Source: an uncultured Pseudomonadales bacterium (GTDB lineage Bacteria; Patescibacteriota; Microgenomatia; UBA1400; MFAQ01). From it: 64,000 nucleotides of DNA. The stretch covers positions 75,916 through 139,915 of the forward strand of contig CAZENT010000002.1 of assembly GCA_964513845.1 (NCBI GenBank), read 5' to 3'. A model generated the notes under the pieces. It was given only the letters and a program-made list of their open reading frames with translations. It ran no database searches and had not been told where the DNA came from. Within the stretch, counting starts at the first letter, position 1; the number at the start of each line of letters is the position of its first letter. The translations under genes were made by a program, and so were the position numbers. Shown one piece after another: positions 15,692 through 53,483 of the stretch.

Positions 15692-16447
15692 CTATATATC
15701 CGCCAAGTTCTCAAACAAACTCACTATAGTCAAAGGACCCACACCCCCAGGCACAGGTGTAATCATCAAAGCTTTCTCATAAGCATCGGAAGAAAAATCT
15801 CCTTTAGGATATCCCAAATCAATCCCCACGAAACCATCGGCCACCATTTCTCCTTTAATTAGTCCTTCCGCTCCGGTCGATCCTATAATCACTTCGTACT
15901 TTGCCAAATCTTTTAAATCATCTCCCTTGTCCAACCCAGTTACCAGATAGTCCAACTGTTTCAAACGTGGTACCATTTTTTTTCCAACTTCACCCAAAGC
16001 CCCAACAACTGCAATTGGCTGTTCCTCATCAACATTAAATATTTCCAGAACTCTCTCCACTGCCCCAACAACTGCCGGAATGAACCTAGATTTCGGGTTT
16101 AATCCGTCTATGTCCTTCGCAGGGTTGATTGAGGACAAAATTTGCTCAGTTTCCTCTTTACTGGCTCCTAGTATTGGCAGTTGTACCAACAAACTATCGA
16201 CCGTCTCATCAACATTTGCCTCTTCAATCATTTCCCTTAAATCTTCCTTGTTCTTGGCCATAGCGACTGTTACCAAAACCCCCAGCCTCTCCCCCATCTC
16301 TCTTTTCAAGCGAACATAGGTACTTTCTTCAGCATGTCCATCGCACTGCAAAATCAATAGGCTTTTCCCCATTAATTTCTCGGACTCTTCCAAAAATTTA
16401 GCTATCTTTTCTGCTTCTTTTTTTCCGTCTAGGACTAGCTTGGGCAT
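15692..16447 (-). CDS. folD: Bifunctional methylenetetrahydrofolate dehydrogenase/cyclohydrolase
   Basis: PVPGGVGPLT motif, DVDG region, NAD(P)-binding segment. 251 aa. Confidence 0.9.
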   Translation of the reverse strand: MPKLVLDGKKEAEKIAKFLEESEKLMGKSLLILQCDGHAEESTYVRLKREMGERLGVLVTVAMAKNKEDLREMIEEANVDETVDSLLVQLPILGASKEETEQILSSINPAKDIDGLNPKSRFIPAVVGAVERVLEIFNVDEEQPIAVVGALGEVGKKMVPRLKQLDYLVTGLDKGDDLKDLAKYEVIIGSTGAEGLIKGEMVADGFVGIDLGYPKGDFSSDAYEKALMITPVPGGVGPLTIVSLFENLADI

Positions 16448-17646
16448 GGATATTTTCTACAAATTTCTAATACTTCTTTTTTGATAATATCAGGATTTTC
16501 ACCCCCAAACACTCTCAAAATTAAGCTCGCGATATGTTTCATTTCCGACTCCCCCATTCCCCTGGTTGTTACAGCGGGAGTTCCCAAACGTATTCCGGAC
16601 GGTTTCATCGGGCTGCCCAAATCTCCCGGAACAGTATTGGCGTTAACCACAATCCCCGCGTCTTCAAGCTTTACAGACATCTCTTTGCCTTTTTCCATCC
16701 CCACCTCGACCAATATCAAGTGATTCTCGGTTCCAAAAACTTTCAAGCCTCCCATGCGAAGCTCGTTGGCCAGCACTTTGGCATTTTTTAATATCTGATT
16801 TGCGTACTCTCCAAACTCTCTAGTTTCCGCTTCGGCAAAAGCTACTGCCATACCCGCAATCGCATTCATATGAGGACCGCCTTGAAGTCCTGGAAAAACA
16901 ACCTTATCAATCTTCGAATCCAGCGACTCATCTTTCTCCAAACCATTGTTTGTTACCCCTATAAAAGCTCCCCTGGGGCCTCGTAGTGACTTGTGGGTCG
17001 TGCTAGTCACAATATGGGCATAATCAGCAGGATTCTCAATAGCCTCACCCGCCACTAGGCCTGCAATATGGCTAATGTCAGCCACCAAAAAAGCGCCCAC
17101 AGTATCCGCAATCTTGGCAAATCTATTCCAATCAATATTCCAAGGATAAGCTGTCGTTCCGGCAAAGATTAATATTGGCTTCTCTTTCATCACCAGCTGA
17201 GCCAAAGCATCGTAATCAATTTTTCCCTCGTCAGTCACTCCATACTGCACGCTTTTAAACCACTTACCGGACACGCTCACCCGATGTCCATGAGTCAAAT
17301 GTCCCCCAGCCGAGAGTTCCATTCCACAAATTGTCTCTCCAGGCTCTACCAAGGCCAATAAAACAGCCAAGTTTGCCGGACTGCCGGAGTAAGGCTGTAC
17401 GTTTATATGCTCTAGTTTAAAAAGTTTCTTGCCTCGCTCAATTGCCAAGTTCTCCACCTCGTCCATTACTTCATTGCCCTGGTAATATCGTCTTCCCGGA
17501 TACCCTTCGGCATACTTATTTGCCATCACCGAACCCACAGCCTCTCGCACTGCCTTACTGGCATAATTCTCAGACGGTATCAGAGAGATCGTTTCAGACT
17601 GTCTTTTGGCCTCTTTGTCTATCAATTCAAAAATCAAATCGTTCAT
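16435..17646 (-). CDS. glyA: Serine hydroxymethyltransferase
   Basis: SLIPSENYASKAVREA..., PLP-lysine region TTHKSLRGPRG. 403 aa. Confidence 0.95.
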   Translation of the reverse strand: MNDLIFELIDKEAKRQSETISLIPSENYASKAVREAVGSVMANKYAEGYPGRRYYQGNEVMDEVENLAIERGKKLFKLEHINVQPYSGSPANLAVLLALVEPGETICGMELSAGGHLTHGHRVSVSGKWFKSVQYGVTDEGKIDYDALAQLVMKEKPILIFAGTTAYPWNIDWNRFAKIADTVGAFLVADISHIAGLVAGEAIENPADYAHIVTSTTHKSLRGPRGAFIGVTNNGLEKDESLDSKIDKVVFPGLQGGPHMNAIAGMAVAFAEAETREFGEYANQILKNAKVLANELRMGGLKVFGTENHLILVEVGMEKGKEMSVKLEDAGIVVNANTVPGDLGSPMKPSGIRLGTPAVTTRGMGESEMKHIASLILRVFGGENPDIIKKEVLEICRKYPCPS

Positions 17647-17779
17647 CCCTTAATTTTAACCTAATTTATCATAAGCATAATTCTCAATTAGTTTACCTAT
17701 AGTGTAGCTATTTGAACCTAAGTATGCTAAAATGCGCCATAACTTCAAACTCATCTGTTCATTAATAAAGGAGGCCGAA

Positions 17780-19108
17780 ATGGCCAAAAAGGTATTAATC
17801 TCCCAAACGAGGTACGTTGACCCTAAAAAGGTTGGCACTCATGCTCCAGCTGGTACAACCAAAATTCATGTAGGCACCAAAGATGCCCACTGGACATGTA
17901 ATAGTTGCGGACAAACAGAAATTGATGGCAACATCAAAATCTGCCCAAGTTGTGGCAATCCCAAGGACAGTTCGGAGACATACGAACCTTCTCCTGACAG
18001 CCACCCCTATCTCACTCAAAAAGAGCTTGATAATCGTGGCGTTGACACGGATCATGGTTCTGATGAAGAGTGTCCTTATTGCAGCGCCAAGATCGCCCCA
18101 AAAACTGAGGTTTGCCCCAATTGCGGTGGCACCATTAAAGATGTTGGGAAAACACAACGAGTTTGTCCCAGCTGTTCTCGCGAAACCAACTCCTTAATTT
18201 GCGGGAACTGTGGAGAAAAAACTGTATTCAAAACAACACCAACAACACATTCCTCCGACCAACCAACGTCCATAAAGTTTCCAATTATTTCCAACTATTC
18301 AGTCTCGACCATTGAAAATAAGCCAAACAACAAAAGTCTTTTCTTAAAAATTGGCGCAGGCTTTATCATTTTGGTTGTCGTTATTTATGCCCTTATCGCC
18401 ATTTTTTCCCCCAAAGAAAAAACTGGTGTGGTCGTTTCCAACAGTTGGTCGTGTTCAATTCCCTTGGTGGAATATCAATACAACCAACACGAAGACTGGT
18501 CAATCCCAACTGGCGGAGACTATATTTCCGAAAGTGAGGAAATACACCATTACGATTCTGTGTACGATTACACCAATCCCAATTGTCAAGATATATGGGA
18601 AGTTGTTGGTTCACACAACGAAAACGTCACCCAGCAAGTTTGTAAAAATGTACCAGTCTACGTTGATTCAACGAAAGATTGTTACGATGACGGAACATGT
18701 GATTACACGGACATCTACGAAGATGAGCTCGTGTGCGAAAACGTCACTAGTCTCATGCCAGTTGACGATTACGGCTGGGTAGAGCACTGCAACCCCATCA
18801 TTGTCAACAAAGATGTTCCTGTAAAACAGGCTTACTACGTCTACAAAATCTGGGAATGGGTTCCAATTCAACCCTCGGTATCATCGGGAACTGATAATAC
18901 AATTATCTGTCCTGTAATCCAAGAAACAGAAACAATCATACAATCATCAGGCCCAATGATTACTTGTCAAACAAATATTCTGGTTGACGAGAAACAACGA
19001 ACAATCAAGCCTGACTGTTCAGCAGTGTTTCCCTATTTGGTTACTGGCTCCGAATGGAAGGTTACGATGTCCGGACCAATCATCCAGAAAATCGAAGCAC
19101 TTCAATAA
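17780..19108 (+). CDS. Multi-zinc-ribbon membrane protein: cytoplasmic N-terminus with at least three CxxC...CxxC pairs, one TM helix, Cys-rich extracytoplasmic domain
   Basis: Starts MAKKVLISQ. CNSCG/CPSCG, CPYCS/CPNCG and CPSCS/CGNCG zinc-ribbon pairs, TM FLKIGAGFIILVVVIYALIAIF, and a C-terminal domain with more than 12 Cys. Confidence 0.6.
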   Translation: MAKKVLISQTRYVDPKKVGTHAPAGTTKIHVGTKDAHWTCNSCGQTEIDGNIKICPSCGNPKDSSETYEPSPDSHPYLTQKELDNRGVDTDHGSDEECPYCSAKIAPKTEVCPNCGGTIKDVGKTQRVCPSCSRETNSLICGNCGEKTVFKTTPTTHSSDQPTSIKFPIISNYSVSTIENKPNNKSLFLKIGAGFIILVVVIYALIAIFSPKEKTGVVVSNSWSCSIPLVEYQYNQHEDWSIPTGGDYISESEEIHHYDSVYDYTNPNCQDIWEVVGSHNENVTQQVCKNVPVYVDSTKDCYDDGTCDYTDIYEDELVCENVTSLMPVDDYGWVEHCNPIIVNKDVPVKQAYYVYKIWEWVPIQPSVSSGTDNTIICPVIQETETIIQSSGPMITCQTNILVDEKQRTIKPDCSAVFPYLVTGSEWKVTMSGPIIQKIEALQ

Positions 19109-19116
19109 AATCACCA

Positions 19117-19149
19117 ATCCCCGTCTCACAAGAGGCGGGGATTTTTTTA
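19117..19149. terminator. Intrinsic terminator, usable by both the 17780 gene (+) and tmk (-)
   Basis: tccccgtctc-acaa-gaggcgggga hairpin followed by ttttttt. Confidence 0.65.
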
Positions 19150-19764
19150 CCACCTTTCAGCAATCTTCTTCATAATATTTTCATGAACTAGTTCGGGGCT
19201 TTCGTTAGCGTTAACAATCTCCCAGCCATACTCAGCGGCAAGTTCGAGATGAATTTTACGATTTAATTCCCAAACAGCATCTCCCGCAGCTTCATGTCGG
19301 TGTCCTCTTTCGATTCCTCCAGAAAATCTCACCGCACCATCAAGCAAAATAGCGATATCGGGATCAATTATTCCCTGATTAAATAAATCCAATAACTCTC
19401 TACTTACACCCTTAGTTAACCCCCAAGACATTCCTGTTCCCTTATAATCCTCCGCAATAACATCTCCCATTTTGAGTAATTCCATCAGCTGCGGTTGAAA
19501 CTGCAATCGATTCTCCGCAAACCAATACTGCAGTTCCTCATCCCCCATTTTTATTTTGTTACCATTTTCATCTGGGCGCAGTACACTGTTTATCAAAATT
19601 CCGGTTTCTGATGAATATATTGGGTATTTCAACCGCGTATATGGCCTCCCCATTAGCTGCCAATCTCTTTCCAATAGCTCCAATTGTTTCGACTTACCAA
19701 GATTATTTGAACCATACAACACCATCAACCTTCCCCTGCCTTGAAATAAATTATCCCTCAGCAT
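19147..19764 (-). CDS. tmk: Thymidylate (dTMP) kinase family protein
   Basis: P-loop GSNNLGKSKQ, an EDYKGTGMSWG (DRY..S..YQ-like) segment, PDIAILLDG (PDLTILLD-like), and a LID region RFSGGIERGHRHE. Confidence 0.7.
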   Translation of the reverse strand: MLRDNLFQGRGRLMVLYGSNNLGKSKQLELLERDWQLMGRPYTRLKYPIYSSETGILINSVLRPDENGNKIKMGDEELQYWFAENRLQFQPQLMELLKMGDVIAEDYKGTGMSWGLTKGVSRELLDLFNQGIIDPDIAILLDGAVRFSGGIERGHRHEAAGDAVWELNRKIHLELAAEYGWEIVNANESPELVHENIMKKIAERW

Positions 19765-22913: not shown

Positions 22914-24563
22914 ATGAAAACAGAAAATGAAATTACATCATTTCCGCTTGAATATCCTCATGTTGAGATACCCCAGTTCAACACTCAAATTTCCCTCATC
23001 TTGCGCTCGGAAGCTCCTCTCGACCTCTCTCAGTTTTCTCAAAAACAAAGAGATGATCTAAACTCGGCTGTCGTCATTGCCGGTCAAGCCGGTCGAATGT
23101 GTTACTCCAACTCGTCCCCCTCTCCTCTCGACTACAACACCAAATCAGACAAATATCGAGAAACAACAGACAGAATTTCCCAACAAACCAATGAGTCGGG
23201 CCACGGCTCAACCCGTGAACATGTTCACTACACTTTCAAAATTGACGGCATCTCCAGAAACGCCGTATATTACCTACACTCACACCCTCACTACGTTTCC
23301 GACATGCAGTCCCAGCGATACTGCAATTTTTCCGAAACAAAACCCATTATTCCCGAGTTCGAAGATCCGGCAACAAATCAAAAGGCTGCCGAAGCAGTCA
23401 GAGATCTTGTCGCGGGCTACACTCAGCTTTATGAGCTTCTCACCCCTACGACAAAAGCCTTAATTCTCGAAAGATTTTCGAGCAAAAACAATTCCAAATG
23501 GGAAAGAAAAATCAATGATGACGCCGGCAAAAAGGCTCAAGAAATTGCTCGCTATCTTCTTCCTCTTGGTACTCCCGCAAACCTCTATCACACCATTTCC
23601 GAGCTTACCCTCCTCCGACTCTATCATCAATCCCAAACCATGCCTGTTCAGCCGGAAATGCGGCAAATAATTGAGGGCATGGTGATGACAGTTGCTCAAG
23701 TTGATCCGAGAATCCTTGATGAAATCAAAGAACCTCTCGAAGCTGATCTCGAGCCGGTTCTTCAACTCCAAGATTTTTCAAAATTTTCTGAAGAATATGA
23801 TGCCCTTCTTTCCGGCTATCAAGTCAAGTTAGATGAAGACAACCAGTTGCCCTCAAAAAAACTTGCCCGAGCCGTCAGAGAAACTCTAGGAAAAAGTTCT
23901 CAAGAACTTCCCGACGCAGATGCCCTGGACCTTCTTCTCAATCCTGCCATAAACAAAATGCTGGCTCAAACCAATGGCGATATCACCATCGATCGTTTGG
24001 GGCAGTGTTTAAACCAGGTCAGTCTATCTTTCCTCGTTTCTCTAAGTCACGCCGCCAACGAACAGTTCCACCGTCATCGTGCTTTTAATCACACCGAACA
24101 AATTCAGCTCGCCATTCCCCAAGACGACTACGATATCTTAGTACCGACCATTTTAGAAAAAAATCCAGAAGCCCGAGAGCTCTATCTGGCCATTCAAAAA
24201 CAGCACAATCAAGTACTTCAAGAGTTATTTAATCAAGGCGTTCCACTGGACAAACTACAGTATCTCTTTACCAACGCCACCCGTGTCAGGAAATCCGTCG
24301 ACGCTCCTCTCGGTGCTATCTACCATTTTCTAAAACTTCGCACTTGCCTAAACTCCCAGGAAGAAATCTATCACATTGCCGTTTCTCTCACCAAACAAAT
24401 CTGCGATCTAGACCCAGCACTAAAACCATATTTTAGTTATCCCTCACCTTGTGGTGTTCGTCGCCTTGGCAATGAAAAACCATTTTGCCCAGAAGGCGCT
24501 CATTTTTGTGGAGTCCGTATCTGGGACGTTTCCATCGACGACTTTCCCAAAAGATATATCTGA
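22914..24563 (+). CDS. thyX: Flavin-dependent thymidylate synthase ThyX, tandem-duplicated (fused pseudo-dimer)
   Basis: N-domain HGSTREHVHYTFKIDGISRNAVYYLHSHPHYVSDMQSQRY aligns with the ThyX core (HETPFEHIVFTF...FRHRIASYNELSGRY) but RHR is replaced by SHPH. The C-domain retains HRHRAF. The LPLNLY...RSLMNFLNLR-like segments ARYLLPLGTPANLYHTISELTLLRLYHQ and DAPLGAIYHFLKLR each appear once per half. Confidence 0.75.
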   Translation: MKTENEITSFPLEYPHVEIPQFNTQISLILRSEAPLDLSQFSQKQRDDLNSAVVIAGQAGRMCYSNSSPSPLDYNTKSDKYRETTDRISQQTNESGHGSTREHVHYTFKIDGISRNAVYYLHSHPHYVSDMQSQRYCNFSETKPIIPEFEDPATNQKAAEAVRDLVAGYTQLYELLTPTTKALILERFSSKNNSKWERKINDDAGKKAQEIARYLLPLGTPANLYHTISELTLLRLYHQSQTMPVQPEMRQIIEGMVMTVAQVDPRILDEIKEPLEADLEPVLQLQDFSKFSEEYDALLSGYQVKLDEDNQLPSKKLARAVRETLGKSSQELPDADALDLLLNPAINKMLAQTNGDITIDRLGQCLNQVSLSFLVSLSHAANEQFHRHRAFNHTEQIQLAIPQDDYDILVPTILEKNPEARELYLAIQKQHNQVLQELFNQGVPLDKLQYLFTNATRVRKSVDAPLGAIYHFLKLRTCLNSQEEIYHIAVSLTKQICDLDPALKPYFSYPSPCGVRRLGNEKPFCPEGAHFCGVRIWDVSIDDFPKRYI

Positions 24564-36811: not shown

Positions 36812-36871
36812 ACCATACTCGAAGTGCGGTAAAATATGTCATCCCCAACTCGATTTGGGAACCATACAATT

Positions 36872-37405
36872 ATGAAAATTTTGACTACACCAGATCCATT
36901 TTTAAAACAAAAAGCTCTTCCTATCGAAAAGCTTGATAAAAAGATCAAAGAGCAGATTGTCGATATGATAAAAACCCTAAAATCCGCCAAGGATCCAGAG
37001 GGTGTTGGTTTGGCGGCCACTCAAGTAGGCCTAAATCGTCGTCTATTTATCATATCTTTCAATGGTGTCCCTGAAATTTTTATCAACCCCGAGCTTAAGA
37101 ACTTCTCCAAAGCTACTCTTTTTGATGTCCATCCAAAGTCCAAAGACCGTTGGCTCGAAGGCTGTCTTTCGGTTCCTCGACTCTGGGGCTTGGTCAATCG
37201 CCCATACTCAGTCGAGGTCGATTACCTCACTCCGGTTGGTGACAAGCTTGAAAAACGTCACCGCAAATTCGAAGACGCCGACGCCTCATATGTTCAGCAC
37301 GAAAACGATCACTTGGATGGTATTCTGTTTACCGATCGCATTTTGGAGCAAGGTGGCGAAATTCTTATGGAAACCCCTTCAGGACTTACCCCCATCGAAA
37401 TGTAA
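36872..37405 (+). CDS. def: Peptide deformylase
   Basis: GVGLAATQVG motif 1, EGCLSVP motif 2, QHENDHLDG motif 3 (HExxH). Confidence 0.92.
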   Translation: MKILTTPDPFLKQKALPIEKLDKKIKEQIVDMIKTLKSAKDPEGVGLAATQVGLNRRLFIISFNGVPEIFINPELKNFSKATLFDVHPKSKDRWLEGCLSVPRLWGLVNRPYSVEVDYLTPVGDKLEKRHRKFEDADASYVQHENDHLDGILFTDRILEQGGEILMETPSGLTPIEM

Positions 37406-37430
37406 GTTTAGAAATACAATTATGATATGG

Positions 37431-37458
37431 AAAAGCCTCGATTCCTCGAGGCTTTTTG
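37431..37458 (+). terminator. Intrinsic terminator between def and fmt
   Basis: gcctcgattcctcgaggc hairpin followed by tttttg. Confidence 0.65.
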
Positions 37459-37473
37459 TGAAAAATTAGATCA

Positions 37474-37551
37474 AAATTACAGCAAAACTACAAAAATTGC
37501 CACCACGATAACCACAATCAATAACCCTACAATCACCTTTTCAATAGTTTT
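37474..37551 (-). CDS. Possible 25-aa hydrophobic micro-protein (VKTIEKVIVGLLIVVIVVAIFVVLL), GTG start
   Basis: Minus-strand RBS AAAGGAGA sits 4 nt before GTG. Single TM-like peptide. Not in the ORF track (below the 60-aa cutoff). Confidence 0.25.
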
Positions 37552-37686
37552 CACCGATTCTCCTTTTCAACGGACGAGATAATTTCGAGGCCAATTTTAC
37601 ACCGCCTAACTATAGTTGTCAACTATAGGACATCATACTGAGAAAATGTTAAAATATCATTTATACCGACCAGGTCGAAAAATCAT

Positions 37687-38583
37687 ATGATCAAACCCAA
37701 TCTCATCTACTTCGGCTCTCCGGAGTTCTCTGCTACCATTCTTGAATCCGTCATCAAAAGTGACCAGGTTAATGTGGTTGGCGTGGTCACCACCCCAGAC
37801 AAACCCACCGGCCGCAGCCTTACCCTTACCCCATCTCCCGTAGCCCTCTTGGCAGAAACATTCGATTTACCCACATACAAACCAAGCAAGTTAGACGAGG
37901 CAAACCTGGCTCACCTGAAGCTTTTAAAACCCGATATTTTTCTTGTCGTTTCCTTAGGCAAAATAGTTCCCCAAAGTTACTTAGATACACCCAAGATCGG
38001 TACTTTTAATCTTCATTTCTCCCTGCTTCCCAAATATCGTGGCGCGCTTTGTATCAGCGAAGCTATCAAAAATCAAGACAAAACAACCGGAGTCACTTTA
38101 ATGGAAATGGACGAACTACTAGATCATGGCCCAATCATTTCTCAAACAGAAATCCCTATTGATATCAATGACAATACGGCCACATTGACCACAAAACTTA
38201 CTCAAGCAGCCATTACATTATTGGCTGATAAATTACCCGAAATCTGTGCGGGAAGTTACCCAAAAACGGCCCAAGACGAAACCAAGGCAGTTTTCACACC
38301 AAGCCATCGAACCCTAACTCGCCAGACCGCCTTTATTCCTTTCGAAAAAATCTTAATTGCACAAAACGGAACCGACTCCCCTTCCATACACGCCCTAATT
38401 CGGTCACTGAACCCCGACCCTGGTGCATGGACCGAAATACCATTAGCGTCAGACCAAGAAGCTATACAGATAAAACTCATTGATACTTCTCTTATAGAAA
38501 ACAAGCTTGTCCTAAACACGGTCCAACTTTCCGGCAAATCCCCCATCTCCTGGAAACAGTTTCTCCAAGGCCACCCGGTCTAA
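37687..38583 (+). CDS. fmt: Methionyl-tRNA formyltransferase
   Basis: N-terminal formyltransferase domain with HFSLLPKYRG (HxSLLPxxRG) motif, plus a C-terminal domain. Downstream of def. Confidence 0.9.
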   Translation: MIKPNLIYFGSPEFSATILESVIKSDQVNVVGVVTTPDKPTGRSLTLTPSPVALLAETFDLPTYKPSKLDEANLAHLKLLKPDIFLVVSLGKIVPQSYLDTPKIGTFNLHFSLLPKYRGALCISEAIKNQDKTTGVTLMEMDELLDHGPIISQTEIPIDINDNTATLTTKLTQAAITLLADKLPEICAGSYPKTAQDETKAVFTPSHRTLTRQTAFIPFEKILIAQNGTDSPSIHALIRSLNPDPGAWTEIPLASDQEAIQIKLIDTSLIENKLVLNTVQLSGKSPISWKQFLQGHPV

Positions 38584-48086: not shown

Positions 48087-51000
48087 TTACAAATCTCCGC
48101 TCTTGCTAGCCTCTTCCGTAGGCGTAATTTCTGGTATTGAAGTTGGTGTAGGCACTACAATCGCCGCGGGCGTTGCTTCCGGTATTTCTGGTGTAGTTTC
48201 AGGAGAAATCGATACAACAGGCTCAGGGGTACTTTCAGGAGCCTGTGTTGGTGTTGTGGTTATCACAACTCCCCCGTCCCCCTCAAACACGCTCGTTCCC
48301 GAAACTGCGAGAGCCATCCAGGCAAACCGCAGATCCATTCCAACTCCTCTACTCATGCGAATCATAAATCCTCTGGTATTTACGTCCGCAATCGCATATC
48401 CGGGAACATCCGCGACTGAAGCTCCTCCGGCGATCTGTACTGTAGCCGTCACCACAGGTTCTGTCGCATACTCTCTCGCAAACAAAACCTCCACTTCACT
48501 TCCGCCGGCTTTGATGGTCGCAAATCCAGCTGTGTCTTTATTGAACGTCGGTCGTCCGGCAAAGTTTACATCTCCTCTAAATACCACCTTTCCCAAGAAC
48601 TCCACCATGTTCATAAACACTTCAGCAATCTTGCTTGAAATAATCTCCAGTATATTTGTCTCAGTCAATATTTCCTGCACCTCTCCGGCACTTGTGGCCA
48701 CGCCGGCTACCTGATCCGATAACAAGCTCAGTTTCCTGGTCAAAATATCCACCCCTTCTATTCTATTGGCCTTAATTGTGTCGGCATACAAGATTCCGGA
48801 GAAAGTCGCCTCTCCTTTCACTAGTAAGTTTTCCGTCGTTATTTTTGGCGTAATTATTTCCAGTCCAGCGACCACTCTGTCCGTAAATATTTCCGATATA
48901 TTTGTTGAGTCGGTGTTGATCTGATCTTTTTGCAGAATTATATTTGTCAAAACATCAAAGCTATATGTACCGCTCGTTTGATCAAGACCGCTCATCACTT
49001 CGGCGAGAGTTGCTCCATTACTTCCCCCATTCTTGATGAAGGCCAAAACGGTTCCTGCTTCATCTCCAGAATAATTTGTCATCGCTTGGGCAATTACAGA
49101 ACCAGCCTTACTTGCTTTCATGGCCACTCCAGGTGTAGAAGAGCTTGTCAGCAGATCACCAGCCTTGATATCACCATTTTCTGTGTTTACTTTCACTGGC
49201 ACTCTCCCGGACAATGCCACAGGTATCGCTTTTACTCCCTCACCATTGGAGCCTCCAATCACCATCCCCGGCCAGGTTGACACTACCCCAAACAGGGCTC
49301 GGTCGTATTTTTCCGAACTCTTCTTTACCCCAACAGACAGAAGTGGGTCTAAAGATACTAAGTCACCGGCCTGTAAACTTTCATCACTCGTCGAGTATAT
49401 TTCAGCTAGATCGGCTCCGTTGTCTACCACCATAGCCATAAAAGAATACAGTCTAACATCGGAATCAACCGCACTGGTAATCGAACAAAGTCTGTACGTA
49501 ACAGCGGTTGTTCCAGGATCCACATCAATATCCGCTAATTCAAAGGCACCAATGGTTACTCCATTTGCAGAAGTAATGGCAATAGTATTTGTTTCCAAAA
49601 CTGTCGAATCAGCGCACGTTGTTCCTCCTTTTTCAACAGTAAAAGTAATCGTATGGTTTGTATTATTTCCACTTACTATCTCCATTAGCCCTCGTACATA
49701 GACATCCCCGGTTGTTGTCGAAGGTGTTACCGACAAAGTTGCAATCTGGGTTTCCGCAGTTGTTACATTTGTCAAAGCCTCAGAAGTGTCATATGTAGCA
49801 AAAGCTTGGGCATCTGCTCCATTATCAAGCTGTTCCCAAGTATTCGCCGAAGTACAGGCTTTTACAGTGTTATCTGTGTCATTAAAATATATTTCGCCGG
49901 CATTACACGTCGCCGGATCACCCGTGCTTCCTTTGTCTGATAATCGAAGCGTGGCATAAGTACCCTTGTCTACCACACTTAATAAAGTATTTGTTCCGTC
50001 GGTAAAGGATAAGGTTCCTGTGTTTCCGACAGATATCGTAGGGGTTGTGCTGGTCAGAGATATGTTTCCCGATGTTGTAAGAGTACCTGCAGTACTGAGA
50101 GACCAAGTAGTTCCGCCTGTTAGGGATAGAGTTGTCCCAGAAGTTGCACTTCCAATCGTAATCGCCTTCGCGTTCGCCCCAGTCCCAACGCTTACAGCTC
50201 CGGTCGTTCCAGAATCAAGTGTAACTGTTCCGGTTGTTCCGGTTTTCAAAGATAAATTCCCTGTTGTTCCTGTCATTAATGTAATTCCGCCCGTCCCGGA
50301 ATTGATCGTCACAGATGTTGTTGTATCCGAATTACCCAAAGAAATTGCCTTTGCCGAAGCTCCGGTACCAATATTAAGTGTCATTGCTCCAGTTCCAGTA
50401 AACAAATTGGCTGTCCCTGTTTGCGCCGAGCCGCCCATAGTAAACGTACCTGTTGTCGTTGAACTTCCAAATGAATAAGTCGTTCCCCCGGCTCCATCTA
50501 ATACAACATTCCCTGTTCCGGCATACATATTTAATGCCCCCGTCCCTGTCGCACTGCCAATTGTGATTGTCTTTCCTGTCGCACTGTTGCCGATGTTTAT
50601 TGCCCCTGCACCGGAATCTACCGTCACTGCCTGGGCCAAGGTTGCATTTCCAATAGTCACACCACCCGCTGCGGTTGTGTCGATAATTGGATAGGTTCTG
50701 GCAAACACTCCCAAAGGAGCGGCGGTCGAACTTGATAATGTTCTCGCATTTAAAATATATGATCCAACACCTATCGAAGCTGTCGTTTCTCCAAAAGTAA
50801 AGGCTGTTTTTGCAGCTGTGCTTAGAGCCCAGTTCCATGTTTGGGCATTTTCACCGTTCGCGATACTACTGGCTCCAATTGCTGCCGTAATTCCATCGAG
50901 ACTGGTGCCGCTCGAATTACATGCCCAAGCACTTCCGTTCCATTTTAGAATTTCTCCTGAGTTACATGTTGTCAAAAGTGATAGCCCGCTGTTGTTTACC

Positions 51001-53483
51001 AGTCCTCCATTTGCAGAAAGTTGCACTGCTGATCCAGATACTTTATTCGCAGTCGAAATAGTTGCCAAACTACTGTCAGCAATATTCGAAATAGTATTTA
51101 AACTAGCATCAATTGTTTTATTGGTCAAAGCCTGTGAAGCGTCGGTTAGCACCACTTTTGTTCCTGTGCGCACTCTGGCAATCCCCCCTGTTTGATCAGA
51201 AACAACAAACTCATCAGACGATGTCGATGCTGGACCAAACTGCAACGTTGTCACCGAACCAACAGATGGAGAACCATCAGACTCGGTTATTGTTACTGAT
51301 CCGCCACCTGTACTGTCTGCTTGGCAAGTCCAGCCAGACACGGCCGTCCACTTCAATACCCGATTATCACTACAAGTACGGATTAAAGATAATCCTGTAC
51401 CATCAGAAAGCAAACCGCCATCTGTATACACCGAAGGGGTTCCACCCGTACTGTCTGCAGCGCAAGCCCAGGCACTGCCATTCCATTTCAAAATTTGATT
51501 TGAAGAACAAGAAGTCAGTAAGGTTAATCCTGAGCTGTTACTAATTCCTCCATTAGCATTTAATTGCACAGCCGACCCGGATACTTTATTAGCTGTTGTA
51601 ATCGTAGCCAGATTTGCATCCGTTATTCCGGCCGTTCCTGATAAATTTGAGTTTGTTAGTCCTGTGATGGTATTGCTCCCGGCATCAAGCGTTTTTCCAC
51701 TCAAAGTCTGACTTTGGTTTTTAAATACAAACTCATCAGAAGCCGTTAAGGCCGGAATCGTTGCCACCCTGCTGGCACTTGGAGCTGTAGAGGTAATTGT
51801 TGTGGTATTCGTTGTTCCCAGAACGAGTTGATTATTTACTCTGGTCAGCGTCAGAGAATTAAATGTGGGCGCTGCTGTCGAATCAATGTTTTGTACCGTG
51901 TTAACCGCTCCGGAAACAACACTGAAGTTTGTCGAGTTAAAACTCGCTGCTCCTTTTACCGTCGTCGAGGCATCCGCCATACCGATCGTCACTGTTCCCC
52001 CCAAAGATACTGGTGACCCAGATATTGATACTCCACTTCCAGCTGACACATAAATACTACTATTTGACAACTGAGCATTGGTAATTCCCGCAGACGCCGA
52101 CAAGGCGCTAGATGTCAAACCGGAAATGGCCGTACTCGTTACTCCACTCACCCTACCATTTGCATCCGTTGTTAAAACTGGAATATCGGTTGATGAACCG
52201 TATGTTCCCGCAGTACCCAAAGCAGGCAACACTCCGGCAATATCTATCGAAGTTCCTGAAGCAGTCACCGTATTAAATCCCGAACCCGTAATCGACAAAG
52301 CTCCTGTTAGAGAGTTTAAACTCGAAAGTCCCGTCCCAACTCCGCCGACCGATTTACACTCCCAAGAATCACTGTCCCAAGCCAATACCTGATCTACAGA
52401 GCAGGTGGTCAACAAAGTTAGTCCTGATCCATGTGTCAAACCTCCGCCGGATTTTAGTTCTACCGCCGTTCCAGCCACCTTTCCGGAAGATGTAATCGTG
52501 GCCAACTTCCCATCAGAAATTGATGCGCTTCCAGATATGTCAGCGTCAGCAATTGTTCCGTCGGCAATTTTCGCCCCTGTCAAAGCAGAATCAACAATTT
52601 TTGCTGTTGTTACTGATAAATCGGACAGTTTAGTTGTTGTCACCGCACTATCACCAATTTTTAAATTAGTAATCGAACCATTTACTATCTGTGCATCTCC
52701 GACTACTCCGCTATTGATAATGGCTAAGCCGGTAATCGGATCGATTGTCACAGCTCCCGAAATTGGCGTTGGTGTTGGCACCGGAATTACTCCAGGTAAA
52801 GACAGAGCTTGTTTTTCCTGAACTTGACTCAACCATTTCACCGCCTCTTTTCCAATAATGGCGCTTGCTGTATCAACTTCACGTAAAGACGGACTTATCT
52901 GAATATTTTTAAATTGTCCCCGAGTATCAAAAGTACCCAATATCCGAGAATTATCTTTCAAACTCCACAACTCGGTATCACCCACCAACCTTCCCCCGCT
53001 TACCCTTCCATTAATTATTTTTACAGGAAAAGTAGAACCGTCCGACAAAGTAATCCCCGTTACTCCATGGAAAACAACCTGGTCTGTTTCTACCACTCGG
53101 TTATTGCTGTCATATAGATCTATCATTCCATTTACCTCTTGAGTCAATTTTGCCTCACCGTTTTGGTAAACCAGTTCGGAATACCCCAATGCTTTATCAT
53201 TTTCGATTGTAGAGTTTTGAATTTGAACAAAGGCATACTCGCCTCCTGCTCGGGCAATCACCAGATAAACCTTGTTCCCTAAGTTGCTTTTTGCTAACTC
53301 TTCTGTTGTTATCTCAGACACAACCTGGACAACGGTCGGTTTTTGGACGTCTTTTGACACTATCTTACCTCCACTTAATGCAAATATCACTCCTCCGGCA
53401 ACCATAGCGATAAAAAACATCAAAACCAGACGAACCACTCGGTCGTATTTTCTGCCCGTGATTAGTAATATCTCTTCTCCCAT
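48087..53483 (-). CDS. Giant (1798 aa) membrane-anchored surface protein with Thr/Ser/Gly-rich beta-rich regions and recurring Cys-pair modules
   Basis: N-terminal TM (VRLVLMFFIAMVAGGVIFALSGG). At least four repeats of LLTxCSxxQILKWNGSAWAC..DSTGG. Long T/S/G/N-rich stretches. C-terminal Pro/Thr-rich tail (TPTQAPESTPEPVV...). Confidence 0.8.
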   Translation of the reverse strand: MGEEILLITGRKYDRVVRLVLMFFIAMVAGGVIFALSGGKIVSKDVQKPTVVQVVSEITTEELAKSNLGNKVYLVIARAGGEYAFVQIQNSTIENDKALGYSELVYQNGEAKLTQEVNGMIDLYDSNNRVVETDQVVFHGVTGITLSDGSTFPVKIINGRVSGGRLVGDTELWSLKDNSRILGTFDTRGQFKNIQISPSLREVDTASAIIGKEAVKWLSQVQEKQALSLPGVIPVPTPTPISGAVTIDPITGLAIINSGVVGDAQIVNGSITNLKIGDSAVTTTKLSDLSVTTAKIVDSALTGAKIADGTIADADISGSASISDGKLATITSSGKVAGTAVELKSGGGLTHGSGLTLLTTCSVDQVLAWDSDSWECKSVGGVGTGLSSLNSLTGALSITGSGFNTVTASGTSIDIAGVLPALGTAGTYGSSTDIPVLTTDANGRVSGVTSTAISGLTSSALSASAGITNAQLSNSSIYVSAGSGVSISGSPVSLGGTVTIGMADASTTVKGAASFNSTNFSVVSGAVNTVQNIDSTAAPTFNSLTLTRVNNQLVLGTTNTTTITSTAPSASRVATIPALTASDEFVFKNQSQTLSGKTLDAGSNTITGLTNSNLSGTAGITDANLATITTANKVSGSAVQLNANGGISNSSGLTLLTSCSSNQILKWNGSAWACAADSTGGTPSVYTDGGLLSDGTGLSLIRTCSDNRVLKWTAVSGWTCQADSTGGGSVTITESDGSPSVGSVTTLQFGPASTSSDEFVVSDQTGGIARVRTGTKVVLTDASQALTNKTIDASLNTISNIADSSLATISTANKVSGSAVQLSANGGLVNNSGLSLLTTCNSGEILKWNGSAWACNSSGTSLDGITAAIGASSIANGENAQTWNWALSTAAKTAFTFGETTASIGVGSYILNARTLSSSTAAPLGVFARTYPIIDTTAAGGVTIGNATLAQAVTVDSGAGAINIGNSATGKTITIGSATGTGALNMYAGTGNVVLDGAGGTTYSFGSSTTTGTFTMGGSAQTGTANLFTGTGAMTLNIGTGASAKAISLGNSDTTTSVTINSGTGGITLMTGTTGNLSLKTGTTGTVTLDSGTTGAVSVGTGANAKAITIGSATSGTTLSLTGGTTWSLSTAGTLTTSGNISLTSTTPTISVGNTGTLSFTDGTNTLLSVVDKGTYATLRLSDKGSTGDPATCNAGEIYFNDTDNTVKACTSANTWEQLDNGADAQAFATYDTSEALTNVTTAETQIATLSVTPSTTTGDVYVRGLMEIVSGNNTNHTITFTVEKGGTTCADSTVLETNTIAITSANGVTIGAFELADIDVDPGTTAVTYRLCSITSAVDSDVRLYSFMAMVVDNGADLAEIYSTSDESLQAGDLVSLDPLLSVGVKKSSEKYDRALFGVVSTWPGMVIGGSNGEGVKAIPVALSGRVPVKVNTENGDIKAGDLLTSSSTPGVAMKASKAGSVIAQAMTNYSGDEAGTVLAFIKNGGSNGATLAEVMSGLDQTSGTYSFDVLTNIILQKDQINTDSTNISEIFTDRVVAGLEIITPKITTENLLVKGEATFSGILYADTIKANRIEGVDILTRKLSLLSDQVAGVATSAGEVQEILTETNILEIISSKIAEVFMNMVEFLGKVVFRGDVNFAGRPTFNKDTAGFATIKAGGSEVEVLFAREYATEPVVTATVQIAGGASVADVPGYAIADVNTRGFMIRMSRGVGMDLRFAWMALAVSGTSVFEGDGGVVITTTPTQAPESTPEPVVSISPETTPEIPEATPAAIVVPTPTSIPEITPTEEASKSGDL

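Follow-up and report, generated by a model that had tools for sequence, protein, structure and literature searches.

The thyX gene at positions 22914 to 24563 of the window, i.e., of the whole 64-kb stretch of DNA that was analysed, encodes a protein with two ThyX folds in one chain, the product of an old internal duplication. The two halves of this protein keep complementary sets of active-site residues, and this asymmetry is the invariant design of a widespread, annotated family and is not peculiar to the window genome. Our overall explanation is that the gene product is probably a working flavin-dependent thymidylate synthase (ThyX, also called FDTS) of a fused, internally duplicated type.

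Two ThyX folds in one chain

The gene and the parts of its product are listed here with the evidence for each in brackets (aa, amino acids; Mtb, Mycobacterium tuberculosis).

22914..24563, + strand: thyX, fused two-domain form (list of open reading frames, Pfam Thy1, TIGR02170)
23076..23723, + strand: N-terminal ThyX fold, aa 55-270 (Pfam, alignment to Mtb ThyX, AlphaFold2 secondary structure)
23724..23822, + strand: inter-domain connector, aa 271-303 (the part of the model with the lowest confidence; predicted local distance difference test (pLDDT) values of 80 and 73 in the blocks covering aa 271-290)
23823..24428, + strand: C-terminal ThyX fold, aa 304-505 (Pfam, profile alignment to Mtb and C. 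glutamicum ThyX, AlphaFold2)

The reading frame is intact, running from an ATG at 22914 to a TGA at 24561-24563 (the gene coordinates include the stop codon), and its 549-aa product is 100% identical to one deposited NCBI protein. The whole protein matches the Pfam family Thy1 (PF02511) in two stretches, with an E-value (E) of 3e-49 and 167.7 bits against a cutoff of 24.8, and it scores 118.6 bits on the NCBIfam equivalog model TIGR02170 (thyX), for which the cutoff is 87.9. It has no Pfam match besides Thy1 and shows no similarity to ThyA (PF00303).

An earlier reading of this DNA, made from the sequence only, had claimed two ThyX-like domains in the protein, and each half does match Thy1 when searched alone, the C half being a Thy1 domain as well. 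The N half (aa 55-265) gives E 1.2e-28 and 100.6 bits over profile positions 12-190 of 191, and the C half (aa ~361-501) gives E 1.4e-19 and 71 bits over positions 49-190. When profiles of the two halves, built from 120 homologues, are aligned with each other by HHalign, the probability is 94.8% (E 5e-8) at 14% identity, which is far beyond chance.

Structure prediction gives the same picture. An AlphaFold2 model of the single chain, made with an alignment of 120 sequences, is compact and confident (mean pLDDT 93.9, predicted template modelling score (pTM) 0.91), and its secondary-structure elements follow the same series in both halves. Foldseek matches in the PDB are all single-domain chains, none longer than 246 residues, and they cover half of the model. 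For the chains of Mtb, Thermotoga maritima (Tm), Helicobacter pylori (Hp) and PBCV-1 ThyX, the Foldseek probability is 1.0, with template modelling scores of 0.7-0.78 (typically ~0.73) relative to the target (TMt) and ~0.35 relative to the query (TMq). As of April 2026, no solved structure of a fused ThyX was among the PDB matches found by Foldseek.

Canonical ThyX (e.g., TM0449, 1O26/4GT9; Mtb Rv2754c, 2AF6/3GWC; H. pylori 3N3Y; PBCV-1 A674R) has the same fold as both halves. The fused chain differs from it in carrying two diverged copies of that fold, neither of which contains the ThyX motif RHR-x7/8-S.

Catalytic residues divided between the halves

ThyX active sites are built across subunit interfaces in the canonical homotetramer. 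A 2019 review describes a site in which subunit A provides the RHR motif, which contacts flavin adenine dinucleotide (FAD) at its phosphates, ribityl and isoalloxazine and also contacts deoxyuridine monophosphate (dUMP), together with R199. Subunit B provides S71 and R190 to the FAD phosphates, and subunit C provides R87, S105, R107 and Y108 to dUMP. An inhibitor structure of PBCV-1 ThyX has the same split, one monomer providing Q75 and R182 and another providing S88, Q89 and R90. In the Tm enzyme, mutagenesis shows S88 and Y91, the proposed acid catalysts, to be critical, and R174 activates dUMP via N3 deprotonation.

We took this published site map from reviews and from Basta 2012. Residue equivalences were set by HMMER alignments to Mtb ThyX, with numbering from the output, and the HHalign alignment of the N and C profiles agrees with them independently. 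Tm equivalents were set by what we take to be the TM0449 sequence, and the resulting numbering fits the residues named in the literature. The equivalences are as follows.

Mtb H69/S71 = Tm H53/T55: N half H97/S99; C half L362/Q364
Mtb R87 = Tm R74: N half R115; C half H379
Mtb R95-H96-R97 = Tm R78-H79-R80: N half S123-H124-P125; C half R387-H388-R389
Mtb S105/R107/Y108 = Tm S88/R90/Y91: N half S133/R135/Y136; C half I397/L399/A400
Mtb R172 = Tm R147: N half R213; C half Q449
Mtb R190 = Tm R165: N half L231; C half G467
Mtb R199 = Tm R174: N half S240; C half R476

The N half has the full set of residues for the role of subunit C plus the H69/S71 element of role B, and the C half has the full role-A set and nothing else. 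Equivalents of Tm R74, R78, H79, R80, S88, R90, Y91, R147 and R174 are all present once per chain, split between the halves, so that the two halves combined have the same catalytic set as the canonical enzyme. A check of FAD and dUMP contacts in each half, which the sequence-only reading had proposed, thus yields complementary sets: the dUMP loop and H97/S99 in the N half, and the RHR and R476 in the C half.

That reading's description of the motifs was largely borne out. It had seen the ThyX core in the N-domain with a degenerate RHR, and the alignments give G96-H97-G-S99-T-R-E-H103, then S123-H124-P125 at the RHR position, then S133-Q-R135-Y136. For the C-domain it had named HRHR, LPL and LKLR motifs; the first and last are there (H386-R387-H388-R389 and F472-L-K-L-R476), but the LPL is L216-P217-L218 of the N half, and its C-half equivalent is Y450-L-F-T-N454 (family consensus YLLPN).

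Conservation was assessed in 120 aligned homologues and in 124 representatives of a larger scan (described below), and the counts in the following list refer to these two sets.

23199..23213, + strand: G96-H97-G-S99-T100, the FAD-phosphate and folate-stacking element ("subunit B role"; H97 in 120/120, S or T at 99 in 120/120)
23256..23258, + strand: R115, equivalent of a dUMP contact (invariant, 120/120 and 124/124)
23280..23288, + strand: S123-H124-P125, both RHR arginines lost (alignments to Mtb ThyX; P125 in 119/120)
23310..23321, + strand: S133-Q134-R135-Y136, equivalent of the catalytic dUMP loop (S, Q and R in 120/120, Y in 118/120)
23550..23552, + strand: R213, equivalent of Mtb R172/Tm R147 (invariant; Q449 at the C-half position)
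23616..23618, + strand: R235, an arginine specific to the fused family at the position of Mtb H194 (invariant, 120/120 and 124/124)
24072..24080, + strand: R387-H388-R389, the sole true RHR in the protein, with FAD phosphate/ribityl and dUMP contacts by equivalence (120/120)
24339..24347, + strand: R476 (equivalent of the uracil N3 activator), T477 and C478 (R476 and C478 invariant; two independent alignments agree)

Two of these residues invite further assignment. H97, the equivalent of Tm H53, would have the same subunit-B role as S99. In the N half, R235 lies a helical turn past L231, the position of Mtb R190, and one could speculate that it stands in for this lost arginine.

Across the 120 sequences, the invariant columns are G96, H97, H103, R115, S133, Q134, R135, R213 and R235 in the N half and S378, Q384, R387, H388, R389, Y450, N454 and R476 in the C half. 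The partition is alike in a clade of 27 sequences resembling those of the candidate phyla radiation (CPR), to which the window protein belongs, and in the other 93. When 1.84 billion representatives clustered at 50% identity were scanned exhaustively with HMMER, 149 proteins had E <= 1e-30, and 124 of these span both halves. A full RHR is absent from the N half of all 124, and each of them has S133, R135, R115, R213, R235, R387, R389 and R476. The RHR-x7/8-S motif is accordingly not found within one domain (S-H-P...S133 in the N half, R-H-R...I397 in the C half), and because it is split across the halves in the whole fused family, the motif is redefined for this subfamily and the protein is not excluded from ThyX by its absence.

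The family is broad. A word-indexed search found 282 relatives, nearly all of 500-560 aa; besides the identical one, some others are 70-80% identical. The median length of homologues is 532 aa, and the window protein, at 549 aa, falls within the length of about 450-570 aa taken to define the subfamily. A few representatives are far longer than the norm (two of ~820-840 aa and one of 724 aa), with the ThyX match in one part only, and they may reflect additional fusions or run-on gene calls.

The sequence-only reading had also suggested a survey of how widespread fused ThyX is, and when one genome per species was scanned, relatives turned up in at least 586 species. Among bacteria, these include Leptospira noguchii, Sphaerobacter, Myxococcaceae, Bdellovibrionales, Acidobacteriota, Planctomycetota, Elusimicrobiota and Ignavibacteriota, with Collierbacteria, Shapirobacteria and Microgenomates from the CPR and some metagenome-assembled genomes (MAGs) labelled as archaeal. 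The names of representative clusters add Aenigmatarchaeota, Nitrososphaerota and Patescibacteria, and the name given to the family's proteins, by NCBI and JGI among others, is "FAD-dependent thymidylate synthase". The best genome-level matches of the window protein are in Collierbacteria and Microgenomates (49%), which suggests a CPR bacterium, but one relative of 77% identity is labelled Spirochaetia and makes this assignment tentative. The CPR-like subclade that includes the window protein stands apart: exact match aside, identity to any other sequence is at most 80%, and to the bulk of the family it is 30-36%.

The CPR-like clade has some features of its own. Its 27 sequences have Q368 where H is found in 89 of the other 93, Q364 where R is found in 82 of the 93, and G467 in place of L. 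In the stretch after the RHR (window 24072-24110), they read H-T-E-Q where the rest of the family has A-S-R-P.

In the searchable literature, we found fused, tandem or two-domain ThyX only in Valas and Bourne 2009, who noted the domain duplication and reported that most Chloroflexi have only the duplicated form. By its length, its partition and four conserved cysteines (see below), the window protein is a full member of this fused family, which includes Leptospira thyX. As the asymmetry is the design of a large annotated family and the duplication was noted in 2009, the finding made from the window is correct but far less unusual than it had seemed.

Predicted assembly and rival explanations

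We propose that the ThyX fold was duplicated and fused long ago and that the two halves then split the labour between them. The N half would have kept role C (R115, S133, R135 and Y136, plus R213) and an element of role B (H97 and S99). The C half would have kept role A, i.e., the RHR for FAD anchoring and dUMP contact and R476 for uracil activation. Two 549-aa chains would then pair to give a pseudo-tetramer, with sites built across interfaces as in the canonical enzyme.

The number of sites in such an assembly can be predicted by bookkeeping. In a canonical tetramer with D2 symmetry, roles (a,b,c) fall to subunits (A,B,C), (B,A,D), (C,D,A) and (D,C,B) at the four sites. In the fused form, only a C half can play role a and only an N half role c, and two paired fusions offer two halves of each kind. 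We infer that, however the other places are taken, the dimer completes exactly two of the four canonical sites and that the other two are permanently dead. The two complete composite sites would hold two FAD per dimer, one per 549-aa chain, and each live site would most likely comprise one C half and both N halves. Role b is best assigned to the N half as well because H97 and S/T99 are kept in every N half, where the C half has L and Q/R. The sequence-only reading had suggested that a covalent pseudo-dimer would halve the number of functional sites or else specialise them. The three-subunit site map supports the halving, and the halves are specialised, with a predicted two sites per pseudo-tetramer in the fused form and four in the canonical one.

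A similar arrangement has reportedly been engineered. Leduc and colleagues are said to have obtained in vitro complementation by mixing inactive full-length ThyX point mutants; the reviews confirm the three-subunit conclusion for the ThyX site, not this mixing detail. That experiment would be an engineered mix of two full-length subunits, and the fused family would be its natural, hard-wired version.

Some points weigh against our explanation. Single halves fall under the TIGR02170 cutoff (80.1 bits for N and 44.4 for C, against 87.9), and the cutoff is therefore passed only by both halves summed. An equivalent of Mtb R190 is absent from both halves (L231 and G467), which is a difference from canonical ThyX, and FAD binding must therefore differ somewhat from that of the canonical enzyme. 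The alignment of aa 218-240 has low posterior confidence, though HHalign agrees with it. The dimer, the count of two sites and the assignment of role B rest on bookkeeping from sequence and published structures. Lastly, the search for a thyA gene (see below) covers only the 64-kb window.

The rival that survives best is that no partner is needed, the two fused halves forming one composite site within a single chain. Role A from the C half and role C from the N half could meet within a chain if the interface between the halves mimics the canonical A-C interface, and the single-chain model is indeed compact and confident. However, canonical sites need three subunits, and one N half could hardly serve a single site in role B as well as role C. 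The invariant H97/S99 of the N half suggests instead that a second N half reaches each site. We therefore regard the monomer as unlikely and prefer the paired assembly.

It is less probable still that the protein is a ThyX-fold enzyme with a different pyrimidine substrate or chemistry, e.g., a PolB-like methylase acting on uridine monophosphate (UMP) or dUMP, or a hydroxymethylase. ThyX-fold enzymes of altered specificity exist, PolB (4p5b) is among the Foldseek matches, and the family has unique features in R235, the loss of R190 and a cysteine-bearing tail. Against this, all uracil/dUMP contacts and acid catalysts of true ThyX are invariant, and both kinds of comparison favour ThyX: by Foldseek, PolB 4p5b has TMt 0.57-0.64 and E 1e-5, whereas Mtb ThyX has TMt 0.73 and E 1e-8, and by sequence PolB has E 5e-5, whereas true ThyX has 2e-16. 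The TIGR02170 equivalog cutoff is passed by the whole protein, the neighbours are tmk, glyA and folD, and in most Chloroflexi the duplicated form is reported as the sole thymidylate synthase. The chemistry that we expect is that of canonical ThyX, in which FAD, methylene-tetrahydrofolate (CH2-THF) and dUMP yield deoxythymidine monophosphate (dTMP) with release of tetrahydrofolate (THF).

Tandem duplications often leave an inactive copy, and the C half is the more diverged (E 1e-19 vs 1e-28 for the N half), so one might suppose that one half is a pseudoenzyme scaffold and that the other homo-oligomerises to build all sites. Neither half has the residues for this: the N half is without both RHR arginines and the R174 equivalent, and the C half is without equivalents of S88, R90, Y91, R74 and R147. 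The residues that each half does retain are 100% conserved, which is unexpected of a dead half. As both halves carry invariant catalytic residues, we rejected this very improbable reading. Recent, lineage-specific decay of the gene in a reduced genome, to which the CPR/Microgenomates-like look of the window (best genome matches at 49%) and the clade's own substitutions (Q368, Q364) might point, has next to no probability and was rejected. It is contradicted by a partition that holds without exception in different phyla and is shared by some archaeal MAGs and a phage, and by an intact reading frame whose product is identical to a deposited protein.

Family-specific tail, gene neighbourhood and significance

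A further difference from canonical ThyX lies at the end of the chain, where solved ThyX chains stop, in the alignment, before the position of the tail.

24429..24560, + strand: family-specific C-terminal tail, aa 506-549, with C513, C525 and C532 (invariant columns)

The 44-residue tail has the motif P-C-G-x-R ... P-x-C-P-E-G-x3-C-G-x3-W. Its three cysteines and C478, which is two residues past R476, are invariant in all 120 aligned homologues, and all four are present in 123 of the 124 representatives. The tail alone has no sequence relative in the PDB. In the searchable literature we found no relevant description of a metal or iron-sulfur (Fe-S) site in ThyX, and the four-cysteine site thus appears to be undescribed.

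These four invariant cysteines probably form a metal site, either zinc or Fe-S. Our default is a structural Zn(Cys)4 site, which would clamp the tail to the helix that bears R476. The tail cysteines stand in Cys-Pro and Cys-Gly contexts, with no CxxC pairs of the zinc-ribbon kind, and such contexts are common among Fe-S cluster ligands. There is a slim chance that the four bind a redox-active Fe-S cluster and not structural zinc. If so, fused ThyX would have its own electron entry to FAD, e.g., from ferredoxin, which would replace or supplement reduced nicotinamide adenine dinucleotide phosphate (NADPH), and it would be an unrecognised metallo-ThyX class in CPR bacteria, Leptospira, Chloroflexi and many anaerobes.

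A distant viral form helps to separate the tail from the division of residues. A Foldseek search among viral structures gave two proteins whose alignments span both halves: the 491-aa "putative thymidylate synthase" of Microcystis phage Ma-LMM01 (BAF36111), over 512 aligned columns, and an unnamed 461-aa protein.

AB231700, 15717..17192, - strand: Ma-LMM01 "putative thymidylate synthase" (record annotation)

The phage protein's N half has H and S at the positions of 97 and 99, T-M-P at the RHR position, an S-T-R-Y loop and R at the equivalents of 213 and 235, and its C half has the RHR and the R476 equivalent, as in the window protein. It differs in having no four-cysteine tail and L at the position of R115, and it is very distant from the family's hidden Markov model (E 2e-11). 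This form may have branched off early or arisen by a separate fusion. Because it has the partition without the tail, the tail is not obligatory for the complementary design. A sequence search of phages found only single-domain ThyX, with both halves of the query on one domain; the two-domain form was seen only by structure.

The Leptospira protein (524 aa) has the same motifs by eye. Chlamydia trachomatis ThyX (CT632) is reportedly ~529 aa long, about double the normal size, and was reportedly shown by biochemistry to be active. If so, it may be a fused form and would prove by experiment that enzymes of this kind work; there were no Chlamydia names among 30 representatives looked up. For L. 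interrogans thyX (LA_1533), a review from the Myllykallio group links frameshifts to attenuated virulence and describes the gene as induced in vivo, with no comment on the architecture of its product.

The genes near thyX in the window include several of folate one-carbon metabolism.

15692..16447, - strand: folD, methylene-THF dehydrogenase/cyclohydrolase (Pfam THF_DHG_CYH and THF_DHG_CYH_C)
16435..17646, - strand: glyA, serine hydroxymethyltransferase (SHMT; Pfam SHMT, E 3e-140)
17732-19108, + strand: double-zinc-ribbon protein of 458 aa, between glyA and tmk (only recognisable domain at aa 114-161)
19147..19764, - strand: tmk, thymidylate kinase (Pfam Thymidylate_kin, E 1e-8)
36836-38583, + strand: def and fmt, about 13 kb downstream of thyX

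Reading towards thyX, the order is folD, glyA (which overlap by 13 nt, 16435-16447), the zinc-ribbon protein, tmk, an Nramp transporter and a GT87-family glycosyltransferase gene, 34 nt after which thyX starts. Farther upstream are recR, dnaX, frr and rpsB, and downstream are topA, a PBP2-type transpeptidase, mreC, mreB, def and fmt. The stop of thyX (24563) and the stop codon of the convergent topA (from 24570) are 6 nt apart, and there is therefore no room for a separate terminator between them.

The sequence-only reading had taken thyX and tmk as signs of a flavin-dependent dTMP route. Its tmk is upheld by Pfam, and the route gains support beyond tmk from genes for SHMT and FolD, which with Tmk are all within 7 kb of thyX, and from Fmt. 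It had also warned that a thyA gene elsewhere would make this copy dispensable; tblastn with E. coli sequences found nothing significant for thyA or DHFR in the 64-kb window.

SHMT makes the CH2-THF that ThyX uses. The fused ThyX would take it from the neighbouring SHMT and pass dTMP to Tmk, and FolD would feed Fmt. As ThyX returns THF and not dihydrofolate, no DHFR is needed. The neighbourhood thus brings together a compact, coherent group of genes for folate one-carbon metabolism and lends support to a real dTMP route, in which the activity of the fused ThyX is predicted.

Two observations concern the window at large. The GC skew of positions 1-64000 is -0.227, and at third codon positions it is -0.40 for + strand genes and +0.31 for - strand genes (each on its own coding strand). 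As these skews are opposite by gene strand, the + strand is C-rich whichever way a gene runs. About two thirds of the window's coding bases are on the - strand, and the asymmetry looks like an unusually strong replication-strand mutational bias. There is also a very long open reading frame of about 1798 aa at 48087-53483 (- strand).

For the organism, which looks like a CPR/Microgenomates-type bacterium, the path from SHMT through ThyX to Tmk indicates a complete thymidylate route that is independent of DHFR. Beyond that, the remaining interest belongs to the family and not to the window: a hard-wired complementation, an unsolved structure and an apparently undescribed four-cysteine site. ThyX is an antibacterial target, and Leptospira carries the fused form whose structure is unsolved. 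The family as a whole would be a textbook case of subfunctionalisation after duplication and fusion, in which two "half-enzymes" have been hard-wired together and half of the sites given up.

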